A stretch of DNA of 64,000 nucleotides from Balamuthia mandrillaris (taxonomy: Eukaryota): the NCBI GenBank assembly GCA_031835245.2, contig JAVKOQ020000063.1:124001-188000 (forward strand), read 5' to 3'. This document shows, one piece after another, positions 6,392 to 63,840 of the stretch; position 1 is the stretch's first letter; each line of letters starts with the position of its first letter. The notes under the pieces are model-generated. The model was not told where the DNA came from. It did no database searches and saw only the letters and a list, made by a program, of their open reading frames with translations. Both the position numbers and the translations under genes were made by a program.

Positions 6392-9300
6392 TCCTTTCTC
6401 ATTCCTATTATTTTTTTGGCCATAATTTTTTTGTTATTTTCTTTTATTTTTTCCATTTTATTTATTTTTCTTTCTTTTCTATTTCTTTTTTTCTTTTTTT
6501 CTCTTTTTTCCATTTTATTTATTTTTCTTTCTTTTCTATTTCTCTTTTCTTTTTTTCTTTTTTTCTCTTTTTCTTTTTTCTATTCTCTTTTTCTTTTTTC
6601 ATTCCCGAAGACATTTTTGACCAAACTTTTTTTTGTATTGTTTTATTATATTTTTAAACAATAAAGATGAGCCATGGGATGCTTTGGAGCAAGTAAACCA
6701 ATGGATACTGAACGCGATAGACCGAAAGGCGGCCAAGATGAAGAAAAAAGGGACGTGGAGGGATCCTGAGGCGCTGCGAGCGGTCATGCTTGAGCTTTTG
6801 GCCAGTTCTTCTTCCTCATCGTCTTCCGTTTCTTCTTGTTCTTCTTCGTCTTCATCTTCTTGTTCTTCGGATGATGAGTTGGACAACGAAAACGAAAACG
6901 AAAACGGCAACGGAAATCCAGAGACAACGGCAACCAACGAAAGCGAACAAGAACAAAAACAAGAACCGGAAGAACAAGAACAAAAAGAACACAAGGATGA
7001 CGAAGATGCCGTGGCAAAGACCGTTGAAGAAACAAAGATAGAGGAACAAAAACAAGAAGAAGGATTGAAGGAAAGAACAGACCAACAAAGAAATTGCTCT
7101 GATTCTGCTGCTGTAGAGCAAAGAGAAAAAGAGTGTAATATTCTTCATCACCAAGACGCAGAACAAGATGAGGTTCAAAATAAAGGTAAAGAAGAAATGG
7201 AAGAACAAAGCAACTTTCAAGATGATGGTGATGGCGATAACGTTGAGGATCAGCAGCAACAACAGGAAAGCAACGCAGACGTAGTACACGAAGAAACGGA
7301 AGAGGAGAAACAACGCAATGCTGAGTTGAAGCAAATTCACAATTATTTATTGCAGATTTTCTTGCCTCGCATTTGCAAGAAGCTGCTTCGCAAACGGTTT
7401 GCTCCTATCAATGCTCTTCTGTTTCTCTTTTCCTTTCTCTTCTTCTCTGTTGCTTCTCTACCAACAAGCTTTGTTTTGTGCCGTGCAGATACTATCCTCC
7501 ATATGCCAAACTTCGGTTGAACCAAATGTTCCAATACGTGCTTCACGCCATTGCCTTGTATATTACTTCCACCAACACCAAAAGAAGGCTAGTGAAGTTG
7601 CTCAACTGGTTGTTTGATCCTGATCTCGCATTTTATCAGATTTACAGTACTCATCGCATTGGCGAGGTTTGCTATTTCTTTCTCTCTTCATCCTCTACTA
7701 TTCGCCTCATCTTTTGATAAATGACTTTTGTTTTCTGGACTCTAGAATTATTATGATAACTCATTGACCGACGTTTCTGGTTTTTTCACTACAGTCCGTC
7801 AACCCCTTCCCTTCTGCTATTTTCTTTTTTCATTTCAACTGACCTTCCTTCCCCATTGAAAATTTTTAAAGCCGAACGGCCAAGCATCACCCTATTTGTT
7901 GCAAAACATAAATGCGTTCGGAGAGGTTTGTGGATTTGAATACATTGTAGATAGGCTTCAGGATGAGCAAAACCCCATCTCGTTGGCAAGGCTAGTCAAA
8001 GTTCTTGGACCCTTTGCTAGGGTTCTCTCCTCTCGCTCTCCTCTCGCTCTCCTCTCGCTCTCCTCTCGCTCTCCTCTCGCTCTCCTCTCCTCTTTTACTT
8101 CTTATTGTTCTTGTTCTTCTACTGAGCTATCTCTTATACCATACACAAAAGATTCGCAAGTGCTTATTACCAATGTACGCGAAACCTTGGGTGAAACGTG
8201 TCTCTGCCACGATGTTCAAACGCATCCTCGAATTGCCAGATAACGAACTTAAAATCATTCCAAAGGAAGATCTTAACAAAACGTTGGAAGTACTGGACAA
8301 GTTGTGTAAACTTTGCACACAACAACAACTGCAACCACAACGCCTTCTCTCTCCTCTGGATGATATAGAATTGGATGATGATGATTACTATAATCCTCAA
8401 CAGCTTCAACACGGTCAACACCATAACGAAGCAGAAGAAGATGATCCAATGGCGTTTGCAGAAGTGGTAGAAAGATTCAAGCTCAACTTTGCTTACAAGT
8501 GTCTTCATTCTTCTTCGTTGGAGAGAAGATTGAATGGCTTGAACGCCATCAACAAGCTGATTATGATGGCCACCAGAAAAGATGCTGAAGATAAAACCTC
8601 TTCTTATTCTTCGGGTTATGCGGCCGCTGGGTATGGATACGCCGCCAGGAGAATGCAAAGACTTTCTTCATCTGCCAAATGGCTTACAAAGCAACGAATG
8701 GTTTGTCTTATGTCTTTTTTTTTTGTTTTTTTTTTTCTCTTCGTTTTCTTTCGTTCTGTTCAACAATTCAATTCTCCAGGCGAATTGGTTGGAAGGAAAA
8801 GGCATCGTGGAAGAGTTATTCGGCAAAAAGATGCACATCGAGCTCATCTCTCGGTCCAGGGATGTGTTGAGCCTCCTCGTCGAGAGCAACAAGTTTGGAG
8901 AGGACTATCTCGACCTTCTATGGAACGCAGCAGCTGGCACTGGCAAAGAAGAGAGAATGACAGAAACAGTATTTGAGCTGATCGATATGCTCGTTCTTCA
9001 TCTCGAGCCGGAACACTTGGATCACTTGTTGCTGCGAATCAAGGAGACACAGATTTATGACTCACATACGTTAGCTTTGTTGAACTCCATCACTTTGCAA
9101 CAATTATCGGATGATCCTGATGAGGTTAATGCTCTCTTCTTTTCACCCTTTCTTTGCTGTTACTTTCGTCGTTCTAGAGCGTTCAGAAGCTTTCAGCCTT
9201 CTCCTCCCTGACCGGTTCTTTTCTGTCTGAAAAATAGGAGAGAAAAACTAGAGGATTATTGTTATTCTGGGATGCCATCCAAGATGAGCACTTCATCTCC

Positions 9301-12300
9301 GAAGCCGTCTCCAAAGAGGCAACGACCTATCTGAAGAATATCATTCCTCGGTCCCGTTGCCAATTGTACAGAATGAGTTTTATGAATCTCTGTCTTGCCA
9401 ACCTTCAAAATCATTCCTCTGTTCCACAGTCACTCAAACTGTTGCTTTCAATTTTGGGTATTCCTCTCTTTAACTTTCATTATCTCTTTCGTCGTTTCTC
9501 TTTCTCTTTTCCTCTTGCTCTCTTTATGTCACTCGTTGTGCTCGATTCTTACTTTGATGATGTTTTCTTTTGCAATAGAAACGTTTTCTGATGACCCGCG
9601 AATCAATGAAAGAGCGGCAGTCATTATCGACATGGCCGAAGAGCAACACCTTATGGATCGCTTTTTCTCTGATCTACAAATGTACAAAGAAAAGGCCATT
9701 GAAAATGCTGCTCAACAATTCGAAGAACGAGAACGAGCTCAAGATTCAACTCATAATTCTTACTTGTACTTAGTTCCTTCTCTGTTCTCTCATTCTCCCT
9801 TATGCTTTTTGTCTTTCTTATTCCTCTTTTCGCTTCGCATTTAAAAACAAATACAGAGAAGAAGATGATTTGAAGCATGACATCAACAACTTGATCCTGG
9901 TTGGAGTTCAGCCTCACCTCAAACAAGTCGAAATCCGACTCAAGTTCCTCCGTTTCCTTCTGAGTCACTCTCCTCTCTACATCAGCTCCGCTCAACTGGA
10001 CCAACTTTGGGACAACCTTGTAGAACGCGCTCTGACTGAGAAGGAGAGAGACACCGCCTTTCTATGGTTCCAAAGCGTCTGCGGACATGGCTCGATCTTC
10101 TCGTATGATGCTCTTTCGCAGGCTATGAGCAACTTCTTTCTTGGCAAATGTTGTGGCGCGTACATGCGACAAAACTTTGCCACCATCACTCAGGCCGGCT
10201 TTGACTGCTTCGAGCAGTACTTTCGTTATCACAACATGGAACAACGCAAACTTTCTCCTCTGTCTTCGTCGAAAGACTTTGTGGTGAGTGATCTGTTTGG
10301 ATTGTATGGTCTGGATTGCCTTTGGCAGTTGGCGTTGAACGTGCGGGATGAGCGAGTGGCTCAGAGAGCGATTGACTCGCTCTATTCCCTCTACGATATT
10401 GATAAAGTACGGCTGTCTTCTCTATTTTATTTTATTCTCTCTCTTCTATTCTCATTCCTCTCTATTGCTTATATTTTGCTCATATTTCACAAAAAAGTTG
10501 TCACCCGAGTTGCAACAACAAATAGATACCATCCGGGGTAACTTTTTGGACACCATAATGTTGCATTTGGAGGAAGCTAGCAACAAGGATGGAACACAAA
10601 CCTCCACTGAAAATGCTCTCCGCATTCAACGCTGTCTTGAGCTGTTGAGGGTAAGGAGTAAAGCTCTTTTTTTTTTCTGAATGTAAACTCAATGTATTTC
10701 TTTGCAGAATTTCGTTCAAGAATATGAGAATCGTCAAGAGTTGTTGGCTTCTGCTTTAGGTTCATTCTCTTTAGTTTTTTTTTTCTGTGCTTTCATTTTC
10801 TTTTGTCTTTTTTTTCAATTTGAACTTATCGTGTATCAGAATTAGTTTCATCCTCCAATGCAGACCAACAAAACATAACGCTTCAGTTCTATTGGTTCCA
10901 TCAAGGAGTCAGCTTCGACATGAAGTTCACTCCCAAGGAAACGATGGGCGATGTTCGCAAGAAAGTGGCCCATAAGATCCAGAAAGATATTGATTTTTTC
11001 ACTTTGAGAACAGTCCCTTGGGATTACTTTGATGGGGACAATGATAACTTGACGCTGGGCACTGTTGGAATGGCTGATGGAACTACTGTTCATTTAAATT
11101 TGGTTTGTTTGTTTTTGCTTTTTTTGCTTTTCTCTCTCTCTCTTTTCATTTGGTGTTAATTTCTTTGCAAAGTTGGATGGAAGTGATAGTTTAGAGCTAT
11201 TAGAAGAGCACGAGGATACGGCCACCATTGCTGCTTTGCTTGGGTTGCCTGTATGTTATCTTTCTCCTTTTGTTTAAAAACAATCATGTTTTAAACTTCT
11301 CTTTTGACAACAAGCAGGAAGTGAAAAGTTCTTTTATTCCAAGCTACGCCCTTTCCAACAACCAAACCTTTTTCTACCTTCTTTTCAGCCTCCTTAGCCT
11401 TGATTCCAAGATTGCCGAAACGGTTCGTGATTGCTATGTTCTCATTCTATTACGCTTTGTTCTTCTTTCTAATATCTTTGTTATATGTCGTATACAAACA
11501 AACGAAAATAAAGGCGTGGGATCTTATTTGTATGCTTCCCACTAATGCGGCAATGGAGCGCAGCATTCGAACCTTCCACATCACTCCTCAAACCTTAACC
11601 TCTGCTACTTCTTCCTCGTCTTCCTTCCCCTCTGTAATAGCCACAAATGACGACGACGACCTTCTTCCAACGTCTCCTCCTCCTCCTTCACCTTCCGTTT
11701 CTTCTTCCTCCTCTTCTTCTGAAGAATCGTCTTCTTTGCTAGAGTCTCTCCCAGCTCCTATTCCTGACGAAGAAGAGAAACCTGATTGGACTCGTTTGGT
11801 GGATACTCGTTCGACCTTTAGTTTGCTTTACTCTCTTCGTATCATCAAAGGAGTTTTGGGTTTGGACAATTCGACCACCTCTCTTTCTCCTTCTGCTTCT
11901 TCTACCAACAACGCTTCACCTTCATCTGCTCCGTATGTTTCATCTACCATTGAAGAGGAAGAAGAAGCCCGATCCAATTGGGCCGCCGCGTTCATTGAGA
12001 ATGGAGGTCTTGCCCATATCATAGATGCCTTAGTCCATCATGAACGTTTTCAGGGCAGCCTTGCTAAGAGCTGTCTTCTCGCTGTAACTGAAATTATCGA
12101 CTTTATTCTCAGTACGTTTAACTCTTCTGTCTTGCTTTTTGAGGCTAACCCCTTCTTTAAAAAAACAGAGAATGATGTTTTGTCATCGCGGAGAGAAGCG
12201 CTAAGAAAAGTGGTGGACTATTCATCGTTAGTCAAAGGACTTGCAACAGTAGTTTGGCGATCGGCTCGAGACGTTACTTCTCTTTCTTCTTCCTCTGCTT

Positions 12301-12563
12301 CGTCCTCCTCTTCAACCGTAGCAACTATCAACATGGACGTCGCTTTAGTGAAGAACGCGATGAAGATTTTAACAGGAGTTGTTAGTCATCAAATCGGTGG
12401 ATTTGCTGTGGTAAACAGCGATAAACTCAAAAAGCCAAACTTGCTGAAAACATTGTTCCGACTGGAAGGCTTTGAGGAGTTTATTTATTTTGTGGTGTTG
12501 AAATGCTCTGAAGCGGCTATTCGAGAAGAGATGATTGAAGCTCTGGATAGCTTTTATACGTTC

Positions 12564-12606
<43 letters not shown>

Positions 12607-15600
12607 CTCTTTTTTCCTCTTTTGCGTTTTTCTTATTTATTTTTTGAATAACAACAGGATTGGGGGCAAGCGACAGCGACGCTGGTTGCTCGTTTTGATG
12701 TTTACATTTTTGCCAAAGATAGAACCCACTTCTCAAACCTGCAACGAGTACTTTAGTCTCATGTCTGAATTGCTGCGTCATCACAAAGAAGAACCAATAA
12801 CAGAGTGCGAAGCAAAAGAGGAAGAGGAGGAAGAAGCAGAAGCATTCAACAATAACGAACAAACAGCAAAAAAGAAGCAAACGACACTGAACGATCATCA
12901 AGCAGAAGAAAAGCACAAAGAGAAAGAGGAAGAAGAGAAGCGTTTACGCGAAACCCTTTTCACTCTTTCAGATTCCGAGCTGCTGCAAAGTTTCGCTCAG
13001 GCTCTGTTGCTTCTCATCAAGTATCATCCAATCTTGGAGGCTTCGGAGCACGATCCTCCCGACCTCGTCTTGATTGGTCTTTTACATCTCACTGCTGACC
13101 TTTCATGCTTGCTCTCTCCTTCCCTTCGTCAGAGCATCGGTTCCTCTTCTTCAACACACGAAGGTGTTACCTCTGTTGGAAGTGTTGGTTTGATCGAGGA
13201 GATAATTGTTGAATGCCTCTTCAAGATTCCATCTCCACACATCACCGGTTCATCTGATGAACCTACTTTGACTTCGACTTCAACCCTTCCTCCTCCTAAA
13301 TGCAAAACGAAAAACAGTCGAATCGCCGCTTTTCATCTTTTGGAGGAACTTTGCAAAGACTGTCCTAAAAACCAATTGTCGCTGGTCCATTTCATCGCAG
13401 AGACGCACTTAAAGACTTATCAACAACTTCAAAAACAGTCCTCTTCGCCTGTTTCTTCCTCAGCTTCTTCTTCGATATCTCATGATATGGATCTTTCCTG
13501 TAATGCTTCTGGAGAACTTGCTTCCTACAAAAACGAAAACAAGAATGCCGAAGAAAAAGCAGAAGGAAAACGAAGCTTCCTGCATATTTCAGAATGGGGC
13601 TTTTCGCCAACGGCTGGAGAACGTTCAAGCACAGGTTATGTTGGACTCAAGAACTTGGGTTGTATATGTTACATGAACTCGCTCATGCAGCAACTGTTCA
13701 TGATGCCCAACTTTCGTTCTGGTATCCTGTCTGTTAGTGGCACTGAAGGTTTGGTTCTATTCTTTTGTTATCAGCTTTCCCTCCGCGTTTCCTTTTTGCC
13801 TTTTACTCCTTTCTCTCTACTCTCTCTCTCTCTCTCTCTCTCTCATTAATGAAAATGCAACAAAAATATAGAAATGATGAAAAAACGAGAAGAAAGACAA
13901 TTGATCAACGCTAGCAAAGAAAAAAACAAGAAGAACAAGAAGGACAAAGAGAACGACATTGACGAGTTCTCGGAGAAAGAAGAAGAACCAAGCGAGGAAG
14001 AACTGCTGTTAGAGCTCCAAGAAATGTTTGCCTACCTCCAAGAAAGCATCAAGCAGTATTACTCTCCGAAACGGTTTTGCATGGTCTACAAAGATTATGA
14101 TGGACGTCCCATAGATGTAAGCGTTCAAATGGATGCTGATGAGTTCTTCAATATGCTTTGCGATAAGCTGGACAACCACTTAAAAGGCTCTCATCAGGTA
14201 ACATTTTTGTTATTGTTTTTTTTTAAATGGTTGTTGTTGACTAACTCGTTTTATAACGAAAAGGAAAAACTGTTGCATAATATTTGGTGTGGTAAAATGA
14301 CTTCGCAGTTGATTTGCAAAGGGTGCCCTCATCGCAGCGAAAGAGACGAGCCATTCTACACCATAAGTCTCGATATCAAAGGAAAGAAAGACATTTTGGA
14401 AGCGCTGCAGCTTTATGTTCGTGGAGATATGTTGGAAGGGGACAACGCTTACTTTTGCGAGCTCTGTGGAAAGCACGTTGATACACTGAAGCGCTCCTGC
14501 ATCAAAGTATCCTTCTTTTTGCGATATATTCCTTTTGCTTTTCTCTAACTTATTGTTTTTCTAATACGGCCGAAATAGACCCTACCCAATACACTCATTC
14601 TCCATCTCAAACGGTTCGAGTTCGATTTTGACACCATGGTCAAAATGAAGCTGAACCAACACTGCGAGTTTCCTTTCAAGTTGAACATGCTGCCGTACAC
14701 CAGGGAAGGATTAGCTGCAGCCGAAGAAGAGGAAGAACAAAAAAGGAGGACAAGACAACAGCAACAACAAAAGAAAATAGGAAAGAGAGAAGATGGAGAT
14801 GACGAGGATGATGACTCTTGCGTCTCTGTGGCAAGCAATAACAGCAGCGAAGCAGAGAGTAACAACAGCAGTAACAACAACGACGACAAGGACGGGGAGA
14901 GCTCTTCTTCATTGCCGCCACTCACTCATGAATTACCTCCTCTGCGCCCTCATGAATATTACGAATATGAACTAGTTGGCATCCTTGTGCATCGAGGCGT
15001 TGCTGACAGTGGCCATTATTATTCCTTCATAAAGGTATATCTTATTCTCGCTTCTTCTTTATTTTTATTGTTTTCATTTTGAATAACGAACAGCATTACT
15101 TCAAACAACAGGAACGAACTGGAGATTCTACAGCAAGATGGCTTGAGTTCAACGACAGAACGGTGCGGCCATTTGACATCAACCGATTGGAAGAGGAATG
15201 CTTTGGTGGGTACGAGGTAATCCCTCAATACGATGAGTTTACAAAGGTGCGTGTACAAAGACAAGTAGAGAACTCGAGAAGCGCCTATATGCTCTTTTAT
15301 GAGAGAATAGTACCTCAAGCTGTTAGTAGCGATGAGGAAGAGATGGTGGATAAAGCGGTTAGCAAACAAGAAGAATCTATTCAAGTTCATGTTCCGGCTG
15401 CGGGTTCTCCTCGTTCCACACCATCGAACGCTGTTCTTGTGCAACCTGACCTCTCGATTTCCAAAGGTTGATATTCTTTTCTTGTTGTTTTTATTTCATT
15501 TCTTTTTGTTGCTTGTTGCTCATTTTCGATTAAGGTTTACTGGCAGGAGTGTCGTTAGCTTCGCGACTATTTTCTGAAAGTGGCGGTTCGTCATCCACAG

Positions 15601-17764
15601 CTTCGTCACGCTGTGAAAGCAGCGGACAAAAGCGAAGTTTAGTTCCAGTTCCCCCGTTCCTATATAACGCTATTTGGCATCAAAATGTACAGTTCCTGCA
15701 ACAGAAGCGAATGTTTGAGGATTGTTACTTCCAGTTTGTATCCAACCTCATTCAACCTTGCACTCAATTGCATTTTGGTACAATCGCCTCTTCTCTCCCG
15801 TCTCTTCATTCTTGTCTCCTCTTCCACGCTTTCTCCTTTTTTTGTCGCTTCTCTTCTCTTCTCGTTCTCTTTGTTAACTTAAACCCTTTGTGCAATAGAC
15901 TATCATGAAAGGATGGACATCTCCACTCAGAAAGCAGTCGAAATGGGTTTCTTCTTCTTCCTCGAAATCATCTCTCACTCTCGCGAAAAAGACCGCATCA
16001 ACCACTTCTCCGAACAACTACGAAAGATACTTAAGGCGAATGTAGCAGCTTGTCGTTGGTGGGTTGGTCTCTTGGTGGATAAACCAGAATGGCTTAGAGA
16101 GATGTTGTTGGACTGCTCGTCGGAGGATGCTCGTCAAAACTTTGCAGAGCTCATTCATTATGCGCTCAAATATCTGTTGAAAGCAGGAGAGAGAGACTAT
16201 CTTCAGGTATTCCTGGCAGAAGGTGAAGAACGAGAAGAAGCAGGAGGAGAGACGATGCTTAAAGAAGGACAGATTGTGCGGCTGTGCATTGATAGAGTGT
16301 TGGAGTTAGACCGTTATGCAGTATTGAAGTGGCGCAACTTTGGTCAATACTTTACTCTCTTCTTCCACTTTGCATTGTTGGGCCCAACGGAGGTAATGCT
16401 TTTTTTTGTTGTCTTTCTTTTGATTGTTTCTTCTCACTAACTGTGTCTTTGTTCAACATATTAGATGGCGTATCTTCTCCGTCGCAATGTTATCTCCCGT
16501 TTCCTTGACATTTATTTAGGTCCTGACTCACCTAATGCTCGCGTACGTTCTCTGTTTTCACCCCTTTCTCTGCTTCGCTCATTCTCTTGCTTGTTCCCTC
16601 TCTTTGCTTCCTTCTCCCTTCCCTCTTGTCTCTTCTCTCTTCTTTCTACACTATTTTTCTAATGTTATCAAACAGAGACGACTTTACATGCGGTTTGGGG
16701 ATAAGTGGCAACAACCCGATTTCTCTTCTCTCATTTCTCTGGTTTGTCTTCTTCTTCGCTCCTGCCACATTGAACGAGATCAACACGAAGAAGTACGACA
16801 AATTTGCGATGCCGACGACGACACAACAGAAGAAGTCGTTCATTCTTCTCCTGTTTCTTCTCTTCGCGATTCTGGTGAAGCGGTATTTCCTTCTGACGAT
16901 GATGATGATGACGAAATTGACATCAAAGGAGGAGAGTTAATACCGCCAACTTCTCCTCAAACTGCTTCGTTTGTATACAACGCCAAACCACAGCAAGAAC
17001 AACTGGAGAAAGAAAAAGAGAAAGAAAAAGAGAACGAAACCGAAACCAAAGAAGATGAGCAATTACCTCAGCAACAACATAACGAACCCGAAGAAGAGAC
17101 AGAACGCAGAATTATCATTCTATCACGACCGTCTCCAACACAAGCAGAAGGCCCTCTCTTCACGCTCTCCGAGCAAGACAGCGAGATGGTGTTCAACGAG
17201 GCGTTCCTCTTGCGTCTCGTGAGCGATCCTCAAGCGATTTCAGACGCCTCTTTGCTTCTCTCTCATTTGTGTTGGGAGAATTTGAGCCTGAGTGACCTCA
17301 GCTTGCACGTTCTAATCATGGCAATCCAGAAGGCAAATTACGAGGGCCTTTCGGCGCTCCACAAAATCTTGCTGACGGTTCTCAACCTCGAAGACTTTTA
17401 TGCTGAACTGAGGGTACGAACCATTTTGCCTCGTCTCTTGGACTTATTCGAGGACAAGAAGAAGTTCCCCAAGAGCACCGAGATCAACCTTCGCTTCCTC
17501 ATTCACAAGCTCTACGAACGCAACGCCGTGGCTCAGCGCTACATGGACGACTTGGCGGCTGGAAGAAGAACGGCGGTGGCAGAGGAAGACGAAGAAGATC
17601 ACCATCAGCAACAACCAAGAAGTTTGGAGTGGATCACCGCCTGGCTGTCCAAGCACACGCACAACATAAACGTGCCGGGATGGATACGGCATGCTCCTGA
17701 TTATGACCCCAGCATGGAAATCAGTCTTAGCGGCTATGGCAAGCATTACTCTTGGTACTCTTAA
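6220..17764 (+). CDS. Large ubiquitin-specific protease, USP9X/USP24/USP34 (Fat facets-like) family, many exons
   Basis: Cys box GYVGLKNLGCICYMNSLMQQLF (~13635), QMDADEFF, finger CxxC pairs, His box YELVGILVHRGVADSGHYYSFIK (~14970), WLEFND and SAYMLFYER. Long helical N-terminus (SSSLERRLNGL) and a ubiquitin-like insert (~10920). Confidence 0.92.
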
Positions 17765-32333: not shown

Positions 32334-33061
32334 ATTTCGTGTGCTGGCTCCTGCCCTCCCTCTCGCCCTAACCTTGGATCCCTTTTGGCTTCTTTCTTCT
32401 TTCTTCTTTTTCAGGAAGAAATTATTTGTCGACTATCAACGGCTACTTTTGAACCGTTAGATATTTCAGGACGTCATGATAACCATTTTATGGAAAAAAG
32501 GAATAAAAAATATTCTCATGACGTCCCGAAATAAGAAATGGTTTTTTTCTTCAAAGCCAACCAGGGTTCCAAAGGAACGGCATTCCAATGGCAGGTAAAC
32601 GGCTCACTAGCAAGAGCTCGCCCATCTCCATGATACCATGGCATGGGAGGCCGCGCCCACTGTTACGTAACAAGAACCGGAGAGGCGGGAGTGTTGAACA
32701 TGACTAGACAATAATATAACGAAAAAAAAAAGAGAGATATCGTTATGATGAACATTCAAAAATCCCAAAGGGGTTTCGGTTCTTTATTCTTTTCTATTTT
32801 GTCAGGAATATAAAGCAAAGTCTTCAAAAAAAATATATAAAAGTCTTTAAAAAAAATGTAATGCTGCTGCACAGAAACTCTAAAAACAAAAACCAAAAAA
32901 AAAAGTGTTTTTTTTGGGTTACAAAAACTCTAAAGCAGCAAAACAAAGTCTAAAACGAAAAAAAAGCATCTGAACAAAAAAGAAACCAAAAATAAAAAAA
33001 ACCTTTGTGGATGAAACCTTTTGGGCAACGTGCAAAACTGAGGTCAGAGAACAGAGTGTGC

Positions 33062-35167
33062 TCAGAAGAAGAGAGCACGAAGTGCAGCAGCAGAGGAGGT
33101 GTCTCCGGTGTTGTATTGGATGTCGCCACCGTCGCCGTAGGCCTCGCCGTCATAGGCAACATCACCGCCACCGTAGGTCACAACGTCCTCGCCGTCGTAC
33201 ATGACGTCGCCGCCATCATAGGTCACAACGTCCTCACCGTCATAAGTGACGTCTCCGCCATCATAGGTCACAACGTCCTCGCCATCGTACATGACGTCCC
33301 CGCCGTCGTAGGTCACAACGTCTTCGCCATCGTAGGCAATGTCACCGCCATCGTAGGTCACATCTCCTCCGTCGTACATGACGTCTCCGCCATCATAGGT
33401 CACAACATCCTCGCCATCGTAGGCAATGTCACCTCCATCGTAGGTCACATCCCCTCCGTCGTACATGACATCACCGCCGTCGTAAGTGACAACATCTTCG
33501 CCATCATAAGTGACGTCTCCGCCATCATAGGTCACAACGTCCTCGCCATCGTAGGCAATGTCACCTCCATCGTAGGTCACATCCCCTCCGTCGTACATGA
33601 CATCACCGCCGTCGTAAGTGACAACATCTTCGCCATCATAAGTGACGTCGCCACCATCATAGGTCACAACATCCTCTCCGTCGTAGGAGATATCGCCGCC
33701 ATCGTAGGTCACAACGTCACCGCCATCGTACATGACGTCTCCACCGTCGTAGGTCACAACGTCTTCACCGTCATAAGTGACGTCTCCGCCATCATAGGTC
33801 ACAACGTCCTCTCCGTCATAAGCAATGTCACCGCCATCGTAGACAACGTCGCCGCCATCGTAAGAAACGTCGCCACCGTCGTAGGTCACAACGTCCTCGC
33901 CGTCATACATGACGTCTCCGCCATCGTAGGTCACAACGTCTTCTCCGTCGTAGGAGATATCGCCGCCATCATAGGTCACAACGTCCTCGCCATCGTACAT
34001 GACGTCTCCGCCGTCGTAGGTCACAACGTCCTCGCCATCGTAGGCAATGTCACCGCCATCGTAGGTCACATCTCCTCCGTCGTACATGACGTCTCCGCCG
34101 TCGTAAGTCACAACGTCTTCGCCATCATAAGTGACGTCGCCGCCATCATAGGTCACAACGTCCTCTCCATCGTAGGCAATATCACCGCCATCGTAGGTCA
34201 CATCTCCTCCGTCGTACATGACATCACCGCCGTCATAAGTTACGTCGCCACCGTCGTAAGAAACGTCGCCACCGTCGTAGGTCACAACGTCCTCGCCGTC
34301 ATAAGTGACGTCGCCACCATCGTAGGTCACAACGTCCTCGCCATCGTAAGAGATATCACCGCCGTCGTAAGTCACAACGTCACCGCCATCATAGGAAACG
34401 TCGCCGCCATCATAGGTCACAACGTCCTCTCCGTCATACATAACATCTCCGCCATCATAGGTCACAACATCCTCTCCATCGTAAGTGATGTCGCCGCCAT
34501 CGTAGGTCACAACGTCCTCGCCGTCGTAGGAGATATCGCCACCGTCATAGGTCACGACGTCCTCGCCATCGTAGGCAATGTCACCTCCATCATAGGTCAC
34601 AACGTCTTCTCCGTCATACATGACGTCCCCGCCGTCGTAGGTCACAACGTCCTCGCCATCGTAGGAGATGTCGCCGCCATCGTAGGTCACGTCTCCTCCG
34701 TCATACATGACGTCTCCGCCGTCGTAGGTCACAACGTCTTCGCCATCGTAGGAGATGTCGCCACCGTCATAGGTCACAACGTCTTCTCCGTCATACATGA
34801 CGTCCCCGCCGTCGTAAGTCACAACGTCCTCGCCATCGTAGGAGATATCGCCTCCATCGTAGGTCACGTCTCCTCCGTCATACATGACGTCGCCACCGTC
34901 GTAGGTCACAACGTCTTCGCCGTAGGTAACATCACCCCCGTCGTAGGTCACAACGTCCTCGCCGTAGGTAACATCACCCCCGTCGTAAGTCACAACGTCT
35001 TCGCCGTCATACATGACGTCTCCGCCATCGTAAGTCACATCCTCGCCGTCGTAGGTCACGTCACCGGCGCCGTACTGCACGTCCATGCCCCGCTTGTTGC
35101 GAAGGGGCCTGGCGAGAGCGGCAGTAGCCAGCAAGGCCATGATGACCAAAGTCAAAAGTAACTTCAT
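33062..35167 (-). CDS. Intronless secreted acidic Tyr/Asp/Gly tandem-repeat protein
   Basis: 701-aa ORF: signal peptide MKLLLTLVIMALLATAALA, RPLRNKR, then roughly 90 units of YDGGD[VI]x / YDGEDVVT with synonymous variation. Confidence 0.92.
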   Translation of the reverse strand: MKLLLTLVIMALLATAALARPLRNKRGMDVQYGAGDVTYDGEDVTYDGGDVMYDGEDVVTYDGGDVTYGEDVVTYDGGDVTYGEDVVTYDGGDVMYDGGDVTYDGGDISYDGEDVVTYDGGDVMYDGEDVVTYDGGDISYDGEDVVTYDGGDVMYDGGDVTYDGGDISYDGEDVVTYDGGDVMYDGEDVVTYDGGDIAYDGEDVVTYDGGDISYDGEDVVTYDGGDITYDGEDVVTYDGGDVMYDGEDVVTYDGGDVSYDGGDVVTYDGGDISYDGEDVVTYDGGDVTYDGEDVVTYDGGDVSYDGGDVTYDGGDVMYDGGDVTYDGGDIAYDGEDVVTYDGGDVTYDGEDVVTYDGGDVMYDGGDVTYDGGDIAYDGEDVVTYDGGDVMYDGEDVVTYDGGDISYDGEDVVTYDGGDVMYDGEDVVTYDGGDVSYDGGDVVYDGGDIAYDGEDVVTYDGGDVTYDGEDVVTYDGGDVMYDGGDVVTYDGGDISYDGEDVVTYDGGDVTYDGEDVVTYDGGDVMYDGGDVTYDGGDIAYDGEDVVTYDGGDVTYDGEDVVTYDGGDVMYDGGDVTYDGGDIAYDGEDVVTYDGGDVMYDGGDVTYDGGDIAYDGEDVVTYDGGDVMYDGEDVVTYDGGDVTYDGEDVVTYDGGDVMYDGEDVVTYGGGDVAYDGEAYGDGGDIQYNTGDTSSAAALRALFF

Positions 35168-35281
35168 TTGCTAAGAAGCGAACCGAGCGCTGTTCCTCTT
35201 GTGGTTTGTTTGTTGGTTTGTTTGTTTGTGAAGAGGATGATGAGATGAGGAAAAGCATGAAGGGGCACCAGCGGGGGCATG

Positions 35282-58701: not shown

Positions 58702-58940
58702 ACAGGCCCAACAAGTCCTTTAGTTTCGATTTCTGTCTATGATATCGACAAAAATACTGATTTGCGTCGACAAAAAAGGATGACAAACATTTGGAGCTTG
58801 CAGTTCGACTCTGACTCGAATCATCCATTTTTTTGATGTTGCACGTTGAGTCCCCAGTTCGACTCCCAACCGCTCCACACTTCTTTTTTTTTTATTTAGA
58901 AAAAAATTTCTGATTTGAACAAAAGAAAAAAAGAGTGACC

Positions 58941-59681
58941 ATGATGATGAGTGAAACGACCGCCCACCACCACCACCACCACGCGGAGAGCTCCGCTGTT
59001 TTGCCGTGGCCCTTGCACGTGTTGCCGTACGACGCGTGCTTGCACGTCTTCGCCTACCTCAACGCAGAGGAATTGCTCGCAGCACGTTTGGTTTGCTCCT
59101 TGTGGAAATCGATTGCTGATGACGGTTTGATTTTTGTGTGTTGAGTGTGAGAGAGAGAGAAGAGAGAGTGAGACGTGCAAGGCATGACCTTTTCGTTTGC
59201 TGCTCTTTTTTTTTTAAAAAGGACACGTTTGGAAACAACAATGCGCAGAGCCGCCTTCCGTCATGGCAAAACCGCCAAAGCGTCACTTGCCGCGCTTCTT
59301 CACGAATGTTTTGAAAACGAGCCACTGGAAGGAGTTATACAAAGAACTAGGTTTGTTCTTTCTTTTTTTTTTTTTTTTGAAGAGATAGAGAAGAGAGAGC
59401 GAGATACAGATAAAAAGAAAGAGAACCCGAGAAGTGCTGTCTCTCGTTCTGTTGTTCTTGTTCTTGTTGTTCTTCTTCTTCTTCTTGTTCTTCTTCTTGT
59501 TCTTCTTCTTCTTCTTCTTCTTCTTCTTGTTCTTGTTCTTCTTCTTCTTCTTCTTCTTCTTCTTCTTCTTCTTCTTCTTCTTCTTCTTCTTCTTCTTCTT
59601 CTTCTTCTTCTTCTTCTTCTTCTTCTTCTTCTACTGCTTCTTCTTCTCTTCGCCGCTTGTTTTGCTTCTGCTTGTTCTTCT

Positions 59682-59715
<34 letters not shown>

Positions 59716-60098
59716 GTGTCGCTTCCTCCGTCCTTCTGCTCTGTTCTCTTTCTTTCTTCCCTCGTTCCCTCTTTGCTCGATCTTATATTGTGCTTATAAT
59801 CTGTTTATTAGCTACCATTTCTAAAGACGATGCGTCTTTGGATAACTTTTGTCCGCTGCTAGCGGAAGGGCTCGAGGCCTCTTCTACCGATCACCCCACA
59901 CAAAGTATTGCACAAACGTTGGACCGGTGCGTTTCTTCTTTCTCCTTGCCGTGCTTTTTTGCATTATGCTAATCATTTTCGGGAGCACAGGAGAACGCAA
60001 ACGTTTTGGTCATCCAAAGGTTCTGCTGATATGGAAAGCAGCGAATTTCTTGTATACAGGTTTGCGTATCGCCTGAAATGGCGCCAACGTTGATACAC

Positions 60099-60154
<56 letters not shown>

Positions 60155-60340
60155 TTCTTTAAGAGCATTTTTGCTGAATTCTTCTGTAACAATGCATCTT
60201 TCAGATTGTTGCAGCCTATCTGTATCATTCGTGCCATTGATATCATTGTGTATCGTGCCGGCTATCAAATCGGGTTCGTTATTCTGTTCTCTCTTCTCTG
60301 TTTTCTTTTCCCATCTTTCTCTTGTCTTCTCCGTTGTTCG

Positions 60341-60378
<38 letters not shown>

Positions 60379-62312
60379 ATTTGCTGGGTTCGCTGACTAA
60401 AACCGACCTAAACAACAACAAAAACAAAGAATTCCAATGTATCCTCCGCAGAGCCTGCAGATATCAGTTGGGTTTGGTCCGAGACCGGAAGATATGCACT
60501 ATCGATCGCCTATATTTCCTGTCAAAAATACTTCAGGTACGTTATTTCTGCTTTTTCATTTCTTTTATTTCTCACTCTCCCTCTCTGTTCTATTCTTCTT
60601 CCTGCCTTTTTTGGGACTACTCTCATTCTTTTCTTGCTTTCTAAACAGAACCACAACATTTTCCACTCGAGCCAGAACTTGTATTCGGAGCTTATGTTCG
60701 CATTGTACGTTCGAGTGAATAGATTTTTATGAAAGTGTCACTGTTTGCTGATCTCCTCCTTTATTTTTTTTAAAGGATCTCTATGGCAGAGTTCAAACGC
60801 AGCCTGATGATGATCTATTTTATACAGTTCTCCAAGAAGTTAAAGCATCTGGAATTCCTTTTGGTACCATTTGTCATCTTTTTGATTTTGTTCTTTTTAT
60901 TGTTGTTTTTGTCATTGGTTTTTATTCGGGTCTTTCTAACGCAACTGAATTCATGGAAGGTCTTTTACATGAGAAGCAGATTCTTTGCAAGTCACTTATT
61001 CGTTTTGCGATAGCCCAAGAAAGTTTTCTTTCCAACTTATTGCATCCTCCACAACCGAAAACAGACTTTACCAAAGAAGCTATGGAAGCTGAGGATTACG
61101 AATCTGAAGAAGAGGAAGAAGAAGCAGAAGCAGAAGAAGAGATTGAGACAGAAGTTGAAGAGGAGGAACAAGATGAAGGATTAGAAGACGAAATGGAGTT
61201 ACCGAAAAATAAGGTGGAAGTAAGAAAAGAAATACCGAAAGACACTTTGCAGCAGATGTTGTCCAAGATTGCTGCTGCGTTCGTGGCTTCTAACGACGTA
61301 CATTCTTTTTCCGAACAACTCAGGTAACTTTTTTCTTGCTTTATTCCTTTTCTTCTTTCTTTGTCTTCTTTCGTGCTGCTAACACAAACCTCCCTATGCA
61401 AGCGATGTACTTCAAAGCCAACTGACTCCGTTGGTGGGCGCAGCATTTCAAGTCAAGAAGCGACAGCACCAATTTTTATCGCTACTGGAACAATTGCAAC
61501 TGAACGAGGCCAAACTACTCTACTTTTGTGCTAAGCCGGTTTGTACTTTTTCTGTTCAATCTTCTCATTGTTCTCTCACAACCTTTATCGTTCTTCTACT
61601 CTGTCTTATGTACCACTTGTTTAGAATGAACCATTACGTTCTACCGAAACTTTGGAAAACTTGAGAAAGTTGGGAGGCATAGAGTGGTTCACGCGCTTCC
61701 TCTTCGACCTTTTCCGACTTTCTCGATACAAGCTCAATCGACACGAAAGCGCTGCTCTTGTTGAAATCACCACGAACAAAGTCGATAAAAGAGAAGAGGC
61801 GGAGAACTTGACTCGACAATTGATCTATTCCCAAAAGGTTTGATTTTTTGGATTATTTATTTTCTTTGTCATGTTTACAATTTGCGAGCATCAATCCATT
61901 TCGTTCTCGCTCTTCTTCTCACTGTTCCTCTGCTCTCTGCGTTTCTCGTTCTCTATGCTTTTTAATTCATAATAGCTTACTTGCACGGAGGAGCTTGGAG
62001 ATTTTTTAGCAGACCGTGGTTTTATTGGCTTGGCTGCGGATGTTTATGTCCTTGCTCACGTTCACGACAAGGTAGTACAAGTGCTTTTTATTTTACTTCA
62101 AATTTTTTGTGTTACCATCTGTCTCTATTCCTTCACTTCCTTTGTTTGACGAAACTTTTTTTCCTTCTGTCTTCTCTTCTTTTGCTCTTTCTTCTATTGA
62201 TTTGCAGATATTGAGTAGTTTTGTGCAAGTTGAGGAATTTGAAACGCTGCTTCGATACTGCTCTTTCCGTCGTGACGTCGACTATGCAAAACTCTTGAAG
62301 GTATTTTCTTTA

Positions 62313-62363
<51 letters not shown>

Positions 62364-62718
62364 CTCATCTTCTTGTTTGTACAGTTGGTCAAAGAGAAGT
62401 GTTCCATTGGCAAAGTTTTAGAGTTTGCTTTGTTACTGCTTAGCAGACATTTATTGCCTTCAGACAATGTTTGTACTCTCTTTCTTCTATCTTCTTTTTT
62501 TGTGTTTTTTATAATAATGAAAAACCGCGACAGAGAGAGAGAGAATTCACGCTTTACTTTAGTTTTCTAACAAAAACGAAACAAAGGTTTTGGAAGTATT
62601 GGACATCCAATTGGGAGAAGGGGAATGGAACGTTGTCGAGAAGTTAACTCGTCTCCACCAACAACACACCAACAGCAACAACAATGGTGATGCTGATGAT
62701 AGCAGCAACACTGATTAA
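58941..62718 (+). CDS. F-box + galactose-binding-like domain + clathrin heavy-chain linker-like region
   Basis: F-box LPYDACLHVFAYL…ARLVCSLWKSIA; ASSTD…SI…TL…FWSSKG…LYGRVQ as in plant At4g00755-type F-box proteins; spliced C-terminus LRSTET…LNRHES…KLTCTEELGD…VY…V.DK. Confidence 0.8.
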
Positions 62719-62744
62719 ACACGAACCCGTAATAAATAGATTGC

Positions 62745-62956
62745 TGGCCAGCTTTCCGCTTCAATAAACGGACCGGAGGAAGAAGAACAAGCACTTAAGG
62801 CCAACTTTCCGAAGCCAGCTCAGGGCGAAGGCTTCCTTTTCCCCTCTCACCGAGGGGAGGAGGAGGCTCTAGTTTGTGGGCTTTGTCATACGTTGGGCGA
62901 CCTTTTCTTTATTCACAGAGAGTAAAGGTTGCCTGATCTCGCTTTCGCATCTCTCT

Positions 62957-63009
<53 letters not shown>

Positions 63010-63276
63010 TCTTTGGGAGCTTTGTCTCCTGTGGATGTGCTTGTGTGCGCTCATGTGTCACTCCTCCTTTTTTTTTTTTTTTGGAGGAGGAGGACGACGA
63101 GGCCACATGCTCTCCTTTCGTTCAGCATGCTGCAGGATGCGGAAGGGGTATTTTATTTTTGTTTTTTTTTTTTTGCAAGCACTAATGAAGAAGCACTCTA
63201 CGGTACCATAATCACCAGCGGGCGTGCCGAAGGAAGGGGTTAAAAAAAGGGGAAGAAAAAGAGATGGAAGGAGGAG
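62745..63276 (+). ncRNA. Putative structured non-coding RNA upstream of the tRNA-like element
   Basis: No credible ORF; nested and long-range helices containing G-U pairs on the plus strand (e.g. 62831-62867, 62896-62933, 63037-44/63175-82, 62942-54/63260-71). Confidence 0.5.
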
Positions 63277-63534
63277 GACCCTTTGGTGTAAAGCTTGGCA
63301 TCACGCCCGTCTCCGAGGCGCCGTTCTTTTCTTTAAAAAAAAAACCAAAAAAAAAAATTAAAAAAAAGGAGGAGGCGCCACACGGAAACCGAACAGCTCG
63401 GTGCTCGCCTTCTCTTCTCTCCTCTCCTCTCCTCTCCTCGCGGGGAGGAGGAAGGGAGGAAGGAAGGAGGCGATGTATGCTTTTCGTTTCGGCAAACTTT
63501 GGGGGAGGTCCCAGTTCGACTCTGGGAAGGGTCA
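63277..63534 (+). tRNA. tRNA-Arg(CCG)-like gene interrupted by a ~180-nt structured insert
   Basis: Acceptor GACCCTT/AAGGGTC+A (7 bp); U8; D-arm GTG…GG…CAC; loop CT-CCG-AG; T-arm CCCAG-TTCGACT-CTGGG; TTTT at 63539-63542. Confidence 0.7.
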
Positions 63535-63840
63535 ATCATTTTGGTTCTTCTTAAAAGACTGCTATATATTCTTTATTGTGGTGACATGGTGTGTGCATGC
63601 AGCACCCACCTCAGCAAACCAAAAAGATTCCTTCGTCTTCTCCGCCGATGCTATAACGATTTGATTTTTTGTGGTGAGCACGTGCCTCCGATCATGATCG
63701 AAAAATATCAAACCTCCAATGGAAAATCATATGTTTGTCGACATTTTTCCATTTTTAGGTTCCAATTAATTTTAAAAAAAGAAAGAAAGGCAAAAGAAAA
63801 CCGAACAACAAAACCGAAACGACGACAGTGAAAAACAAAG

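Follow-up and report, generated by a model that had tools for sequence, protein, structure and literature searches.

Genes and sequence features of the locus

The window, by which we mean the whole stretch of 64,000 nucleotides analysed, is intron-rich, microsatellite-rich eukaryotic DNA, in style reminiscent of a free-living amoeba; a protein search found distant relatives only, the best hit being 46% identical. A large multi-exon gene for a ubiquitin-specific protease of the USP9/24/34 kind lies on the plus strand at ~8000-17760, and an ORF of 702 amino acids with a signal-peptide-like start and YDGGDV/YDGEDV tandem repeats lies on the minus strand at 33062-35170. A near-perfect inverted repeat at 32461-32530 gives z-scores of -7.1 and -5.3 on the two strands, which suggests a DNA element rather than an RNA fold. 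Towards the end of the window a spliced protein gene with an N-terminal F-box occupies 58941-62718 on the plus strand, by its deduced exon chain; its stop codon is at 62716-62718 and its last ORF ends at 62718. The F-box named in the first-pass annotation is borne out by a Pfam F-box-like match (E 1e-10) at 59019-59123, and from the exon pattern this match is probably the first exon of the gene ending at 62718. Two AATAAA hexamers on the plus strand, at 62731 and 62763 (62731-62768), are candidate poly(A) signals. The hairpins considered below lie between the stop codon at 62718 and a tRNA-shaped element at 63277-63534, an interval that also includes a CT microsatellite (62950-63012); runs of T15 and T13 are present upstream of the tRNA module.

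The locus was compared with two DNA-like sequencing runs, X9 and X10, out of 11 runs containing part of the stretch. The strain and RNA comparisons omit 62967-63011, 63012-63182 and 63326-63473 (the latter two masked as repeats), which places the third hairpin and the tRNA intron outside their coverage. Positions 62365-62966 form one unbroken contig at single-copy depth in both X9 and X10, and both AATAAA hexamers are identical in the two runs. A coding exon within 62745-63276 was considered and rejected: the interval holds short ORFs only, X10 has a 1-nt deletion, and both X9 changes in the 63180-63243 frame alter residues. We also noticed a 13-nt direct repeat with one mismatch (62746-62758 and 62799-62811), which we rejected as a conserved cis element since each copy is substituted in one strain.

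Folding of the 532-nt region and its variation between strains

The 532 nt at 62745-63276 had been described as a single plus-strand RNA fold of about 500 nt closing beside the tRNA. All four arm pairs named in that description are complementary at their coordinates. Measured against shuffled controls, the whole region stands out marginally on the plus strand (z -1.91; 4 of 100 shuffles equal or beat it) and more clearly on the minus strand (z -3.33; 0 of 100), and thus shows no overall preference for the plus strand. The signal is local. With sub-region boundaries that were picked after the fold was seen, 62800-62940 reaches z -4.79 on the plus strand (0 of 200 shuffles) and -1.38 on the minus strand (17 of 200), and 63030-63179 reaches -3.47 and -5.79, respectively. 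The flanks, 62720-62830 (z +0.64) and the last ~100 nt at 63180-63276 (plus-strand z +1.70, 192 of 200 shuffles as good), are unstructured. What stands of the plus-strand fold is thus ~130 nt (62810-62937) together with a weaker third hairpin.

Ranking across the window places the region high. Among 2130 windows of 120 nt, 62821-62940 has the lowest folding energy; the best 540-nt block here, 62641-63180, ranks third of 181 non-overlapping blocks, behind two that lie within the tandem-repeat ORF, and the block closest to the originally proposed interval, 62761-63300, ranks 22nd of 2036 overlapping blocks. Because a z-score below -3 was reached by 62 of the 2050 valid windows under the ordinary shuffle, that null is lenient, and we applied a harder one in which the purine/pyrimidine pattern is kept fixed (11 of 760 background windows reach z -3). 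Under the harder null hairpins 1 and 2 kept their signal for the plus strand alone: 1 of 200 shuffles matched the core of hairpin 1, and 1-3 of 200 matched hairpin 2; 63040-63110 was matched by 4-8 and 63110-63150 by 24-28 of 200. Neither the small hairpin at 63112-63148 nor the hairpin in the tRNA intron was significant under this null.

Hairpin 1 (62810-62885, plus strand) is 76 nt long in the computed fold, with a 17-bp core at 62830-62868, a basal extension and the loop UCACC. The 16-bp hairpin first seen at 62831-62867 corresponds to this core, which contains 4 G-U pairs, has a pairing probability of 0.97 and is the most stable of five GC-rich stems among 83 stems of at least 12 bp. Hairpin 2 (62892-62937, plus strand, loop UCAC) contains the previously noted 10-bp stem 62896-62905/62924-62933 and extends it to 14 bp with the window's letters; its probability is 0.95 with these letters and 0.47 with the X9 letters in the 532-nt context. 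Both loops (62847-62851 and 62913-62916) open with UCAC, either a recognition motif or chance. Much of the stability of the two hairpins stems from purine and pyrimidine tracts. A plus-strand preference holds for hairpins 1 and 2 under both nulls; the whole region and hairpin 3 do better on the minus strand. Hairpin 3 (63042-63107) has a loop with a U run, folds on both strands and beats shuffles on the minus strand; its part at 63061-63092, also named at first pass, pairs with a probability of 0.98. The small hairpin at 63112-63148 (plus strand) has a probability of 0.19 with the window's letters and 0.63 with those of X9. Next to it, the 32 nt at 63148-63179 on the plus strand have the form GT...AG, include a T tract and resemble splice sites of this genome.

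The long-range architecture did not survive folding. The helix between 62942-62954 and 63260-63271, proposed to close the fold next to the tRNA, has a pairing probability of 0.0 in the 532-nt fold, as does the helix 63037-63044/63175-63182 that was to close a three-way junction; 63030-63190 has to be folded by itself for the latter to reach 0.72. The CT microsatellite pairs with the purine tract in the computed fold and hence lies outside loops, contrary to the claim that the expansion falls in a loop. The purine tract, which would form the 3' arm of the long-range helix, can pair as well or better with 26 places in 63 kb, and its proposed partner is the best 13-mer of 498 within 62745-63255. 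A C at 63265 in the leader of RNA run X12 changes the long-range helix from -13.1 to -10.6 kcal/mol, a figure that assumes the partner as in X10 and, coming from different samples, is no strict test. An alternative helix between leader and anticodon region (63261-63267/63307-63313) improves with the X12 change (-11.4 to -13.2 kcal/mol), yet it was rejected at a probability of at most 0.07.

Sequence changes between the strains bear on hairpins 1 and 2 directly. Six sites at 62800-62945 are substituted in X9 or X10 relative to the window, and four of them (62871, 62878, 62906 and 62911) turn a mismatch into a pair. These four lie within the most stabilising 2.3% of 438 possible changes (binomial 4e-6 if random). 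Three of them give Watson-Crick pairs and the change at 62906 creates a G-U pair, which we count for RNA because DNA-templated repair would not make G-U. Of the remaining two substitutions, that at 62854 breaks a pair (+6.6 kcal/mol) and the other is neutral. Five of the substitutions are at facing stem positions and none is in a loop; neither run shows any change in 62855-62870 or along the entire 5' arm (62810-62853). With the X9 letters hairpin 1 has ~33-34 bp, and with the X10 letters hairpin 2 is an unbroken stem of 21 bp. In X10 a 9-nt deletion at 62873 removes the base of hairpin 1. Pairing that is better in X9 and X10 than in the window shows that hairpins 1 and 2 are more than a chance fold of one sequence; selection is not proven thereby. 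The apparent repair of mismatches may instead be decay in the window's lineage. On balance, we consider selection at the RNA level on the two hairpins fairly probable.

The same data can be read as neutral DNA quasi-palindromes without RNA function beside an independent tRNA gene, which slippage and template switching produced, and in places perfected, in a genome rich in tracts. Stems can be created and fixed through template switching, according to the available part of PMC8794818, and three of the four repairing changes are Watson-Crick pairs. Among the six sites at 62800-62945 in X9 and X10 there is no compensatory substitution, one pair is broken and X10 carries the 9-nt deletion, and the significance of the hairpins shrinks when purine/pyrimidine tracts are kept. 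Their divergence resembles that of an intron: substitutions relative to X10 number 4 in 128 nt for the hairpins, 2 in 118 for the last intron, 8 in 375 for coding sequence and 18 in 306 downstream of the tRNA, so the hairpins are conserved no better than the neighbouring intron. The reads also agree with this explanation in that none falls on the hairpins. Against it, the two hairpins show a plus/minus asymmetry under both nulls, and they hold 14 G-U appositions versus 1 A-C among 55 facing positions, a count biased by the definition of the helix on the plus strand. Indels are also fewer than in the flank downstream of the tRNA (2 in 248 nt on the hairpin side versus at least 12 in 306 nt; p 0.027). 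We regard neutral origin as a serious if doubtful account.

Far less credible is a mobile origin, with hairpin 1 and the hairpin of the tRNA intron as copies of one hairpin repeat, or the region as the relic of a tRNA-targeting element. Positions 62840-62864 and 63428-63452 agree at 21 of 25 nt and there is some likeness at the stem bases, but the stem-base similarity ranks only 11th of 908, the whole-hairpin score of 42 lies below the top 12 of 857, and the region is single-copy in two strains. We give this origin very little credence.

The predicted tRNA-Arg(CCG) module and RNA across its 5' boundary

With introns of up to 1000 nt allowed, ARAGORN calls a tRNA-Arg(CCG) at 63277-63534 with a 181-nt intron at position 37/38, its only default-threshold call in 64 kb; without introns it finds 0 tRNA genes. 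On the plus strand, the 5' exon (63277-63316) carries an A box at 63284-63298, the predicted intron spans 63317-63497 and the 3' exon (63498-63534) carries a B box at 63514-63522, followed by a candidate Pol III terminator at 63539-63542 that has 4 T here and 12 T in X10. The exact 3' splice site is not fixed by ARAGORN, which accepts 404 of 770 in-silico junctions. Placing the intron after position 40 or 41 gives a better anticodon stem but shows no bulge-helix-bulge by eye, and ARAGORN does not distinguish it from 37/38. Within the predicted intron lie a long hairpin (63390-63486) and, at 63490-63492, a CGG that complements the anticodon; intron and anticodon loop can be joined by pairing of 63313-63320 with 63485-63492, and the fold ensemble favours another register.

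The module resembles intron-containing eukaryotic tRNAs, which have introns at 37/38 removed by TSEN splicing, in its CCG cloverleaf, an intron after 37 whose 3' part is complementary to positions 34-36, the internal A and B boxes and the T run behind. It differs from them in lacking the anticodon-intron pair that, by a rule given in the accessible part of PMC10275265, joins base 32 to the third base from the intron's 3' end (C32 faces A at the called 3' site), and in its U31-U39 apposition and 6-nt variable loop. Further atypical traits are an 11-nt D loop and T4 runs within the intron. The same source, in the part available, speaks of tRNA introns "as long as 133 nt", against 181 nt predicted here. 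If the intron is real, it exceeds the longest quoted in that recent review and belongs to a gene invisible to intron-free scans, and a junction lacking the usual anticodon-intron pair would offer a test of site measurement by the splicing endonuclease.

The 3' exon has relatives elsewhere in the genome. Its k-mer depth is 140 compared with ~32 for a single copy (the summed depth of 963 overstates copy number), positions 63503-63534 are common to other genomic copies, and the contigs in X9 and X10 that contain it have several differing 5' and 3' neighbours with T runs downstream. In X9 another copy also has CGG in its 5' neighbour, at a loose end at 63499, so that this neighbour, with CGG a few bases ahead of the exon, ends as the present intron does. 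These copies may belong to a family of long-intron or tRNA-like genes hidden from intron-free scans. Another neighbour of the 3' exon forms a short stem-loop that differs between strains. Exact matches to the 3' part of the 3' exon in other collections lie in ordinary tRNA-Arg(TCT) genes at all four loci found (three metagenomic and one viral, in AT-rich DNA), and these collection scans gave no homologue of the upstream region. A genome preprint on a free-living amoeba (10.1101/2025.02.25.640156) gives, in the portion available, counts of tRNAs and ncRNAs, which may include the present tRNA if the organism is the same.

The tRNA's 9-nt B box recurs in two exact copies (58803 and 58857) on the plus strand at 58791-58878, just upstream of the F-box gene, and both copies have a T run behind them. 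They sit in a short closing stem, and apart from them and the tRNA's own B box the 64 kb hold no strict B box. Rfam gave no above-threshold match at 58791-58878, which could encode small Pol III RNAs, bind TFIIIC or be tRNA debris.

RNA was sampled from 3-5% of each of three raw runs, X12 for both the 5' and 3' stretches, X13 for the 3' stretch and X14 for the 5' stretch, giving 10 reads in total. One X12 read pair within the F-box gene exon (~62386-62470) sets the orientation, and four X12 and two X13 reads over ~63272-63325 have the same orientation, so that plus-strand RNA covers the tRNA 5' exon. The X12 reads continue uncut across 63276/63277 and run, ~28 nt upstream, into what we take to be adapter; the four may be copies of one molecule, and the end may be a fragmentation end. 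These reads place the last ~28 nt of the purine tract (63242-63276, plus strand), which differs between strains, in RNA joined to the tRNA, and this segment is likely the pre-tRNA leader. Two of the six X12 reads of the 3' stretch lie on the 3' exon in the opposite orientation and may derive from another copy. At this very low depth, no read of two in X12 and of zero in X14 falls on 62491-62966, and none in X12 or X13 falls on 63183-63248 or the downstream gene. No spliced tRNA read was seen among the few reads, from long-RNA libraries that lose mature tRNA. The reads argue against an abundant upstream RNA and are compatible, at low depth, with a rare one. Given the tRNA call with its A and B boxes, the other 3' exon copies and the RNA over the 5' exon, we think it likely that 63277-63534 is an independent tRNA-type Pol III gene, which may be a non-decoding tRNA derivative.

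The module had been interpreted as a tRNA mimic of the MALAT1/NEAT1 type that matures an upstream noncoding RNA. The likeness to MALAT1 and NEAT1, with their ENE triple helix and mascRNA/menRNA, is that a structured RNA is followed by a tRNA-shaped module, a possible RNase P substrate. The 3' end of that type has a genomic A-rich tract up to the RNase P site, as the available text of PMC8457004 describes. At 63277 there is no A-rich tract, the last 11 nt before the site being G-rich, and A runs farther upstream differ in the X12 strain. An ENE, a U-rich internal loop flanked by helices, is absent from the computed folds; the U runs at 63068-63082 (in a hairpin loop) and 63156-63174 are not in an internal loop of that kind. 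Lacking both ENE and A-rich 3' tract, the locus falls outside the MALAT1 class, and the module is unlike its counterparts there in that it is predicted to be a complete tRNA-type gene, which has promoter boxes and further copies, and in having no stable upstream RNA among the few reads.

A wider version of that idea needs no triple helix: an upstream noncoding RNA would be co-transcribed with the tRNA, whether real or decommissioned, and RNase P cutting at 63277 would make its 3' end. The most structured non-repeat block of the 64 kb does directly precede the only tRNA gene, on the same strand, the tRNA is atypical enough that it could be unspliced, and RNA spans the 63276/63277 junction. Yet the X12 change weakens a closing helix whose probability is 0 in the first place, the final 100 nt lack structure, the leader reads end ~28 nt upstream and the module has promoter boxes of its own. 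Pol III could not read through the T15 and T13 runs upstream, and there are no reads on 63183-63248 or 62745-62966 compared with six on the tRNA 5' exon, numbers too small for a firm ratio. We consider co-transcription unlikely; if it were true, tRNA-directed 3' end formation of ncRNA would extend to a protist, outside animals. The evolutionary form of the idea, in which a long-intron tRNA-Arg drifted into a processing signal and RNase P releases the upstream hairpin RNA in MALAT1 fashion without a triple helix, appears to us just as hard to favour.

Our searches agree with the first-pass annotation in finding no snRNA, SRP, RNase P/MRP or telomere-template signature. One further candidate is a known housekeeping RNA (RNase P/MRP, SRP, U snRNA, U3 or telomerase) that has become too expanded for family models, as length and low-complexity expansions would hinder matching. 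However, none of these families is among the 31 and 5 Rfam matches with E of 10 or less, Rfam searches of four stretches yielded hairpin-shaped matches below threshold only, the stretch has no Sm site, box C or plus-strand telomere template, and an abundant RNA should out-read a pre-tRNA and an mRNA exon. This explanation is quite improbable. We found no description of the element in the literature searched, of which subscription papers were mostly not part.

Possible fates of a hairpin transcript

The explanation that we place first, and hold tentatively, is that hairpins 1 and 2 form in read-through RNA of the F-box gene as a likely substrate of an RNase III/Dicer-type enzyme, beside an independent Pol III tRNA gene. 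Pol II would read past the candidate poly(A) signals into the hairpins at 62810-62937, and the enzyme would cut both in the read-through transcript, yielding small RNAs or providing a back-up Pol II stop ahead of the tRNA gene. The tRNA would start from its own promoter and its intron would be spliced. The hairpins themselves are evident from the sequence: they are strand-biased, single-copy and better paired in two further strains, and they have the long near-perfect stem of pre-miRNAs and RNase III substrates. Should they be under selection at the RNA level, the odds lean modestly towards their being an RNase III substrate.

Two known systems offer analogies. Amoebozoan pre-miRNAs are mostly intergenic and 75-125 nt long, as far as the available part of PMC11014262 goes; the hairpins here are likewise intergenic and single-copy, with a long near-perfect stem of ~76 nt. 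They differ from those described there in having low-complexity arms, in the loss of the stem base in one strain, and in being known from sequence alone. In fission yeast, Pac1 cleaves nascent hairpins and so brings about RNase III termination (PMC8421224, from the part available). Hairpin-directed Pol II termination by Pac1/Rnt1 has in common with the present locus long stem-loops just behind the poly(A) region, and no stable RNA would be expected in either. It has been demonstrated in yeasts only, whereas here both enzyme and cleavage are postulated. If RNase III processing is correct, the hairpins would be a further lineage-specific small-RNA or termination element, of value to specialists and no broad surprise.

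The hairpins could instead serve, uncut, as a regulatory element of the F-box mRNA in an isoform with a long 3' UTR, where they might bind protein or act in editing or localisation. They lie on the same strand, 92 nt behind the stop codon, and both loops start with UCAC. Two AATAAA hexamers, unchanged in both strains, nevertheless precede them and no reads cover them, and we regard an uncut 3' UTR element as improbable.
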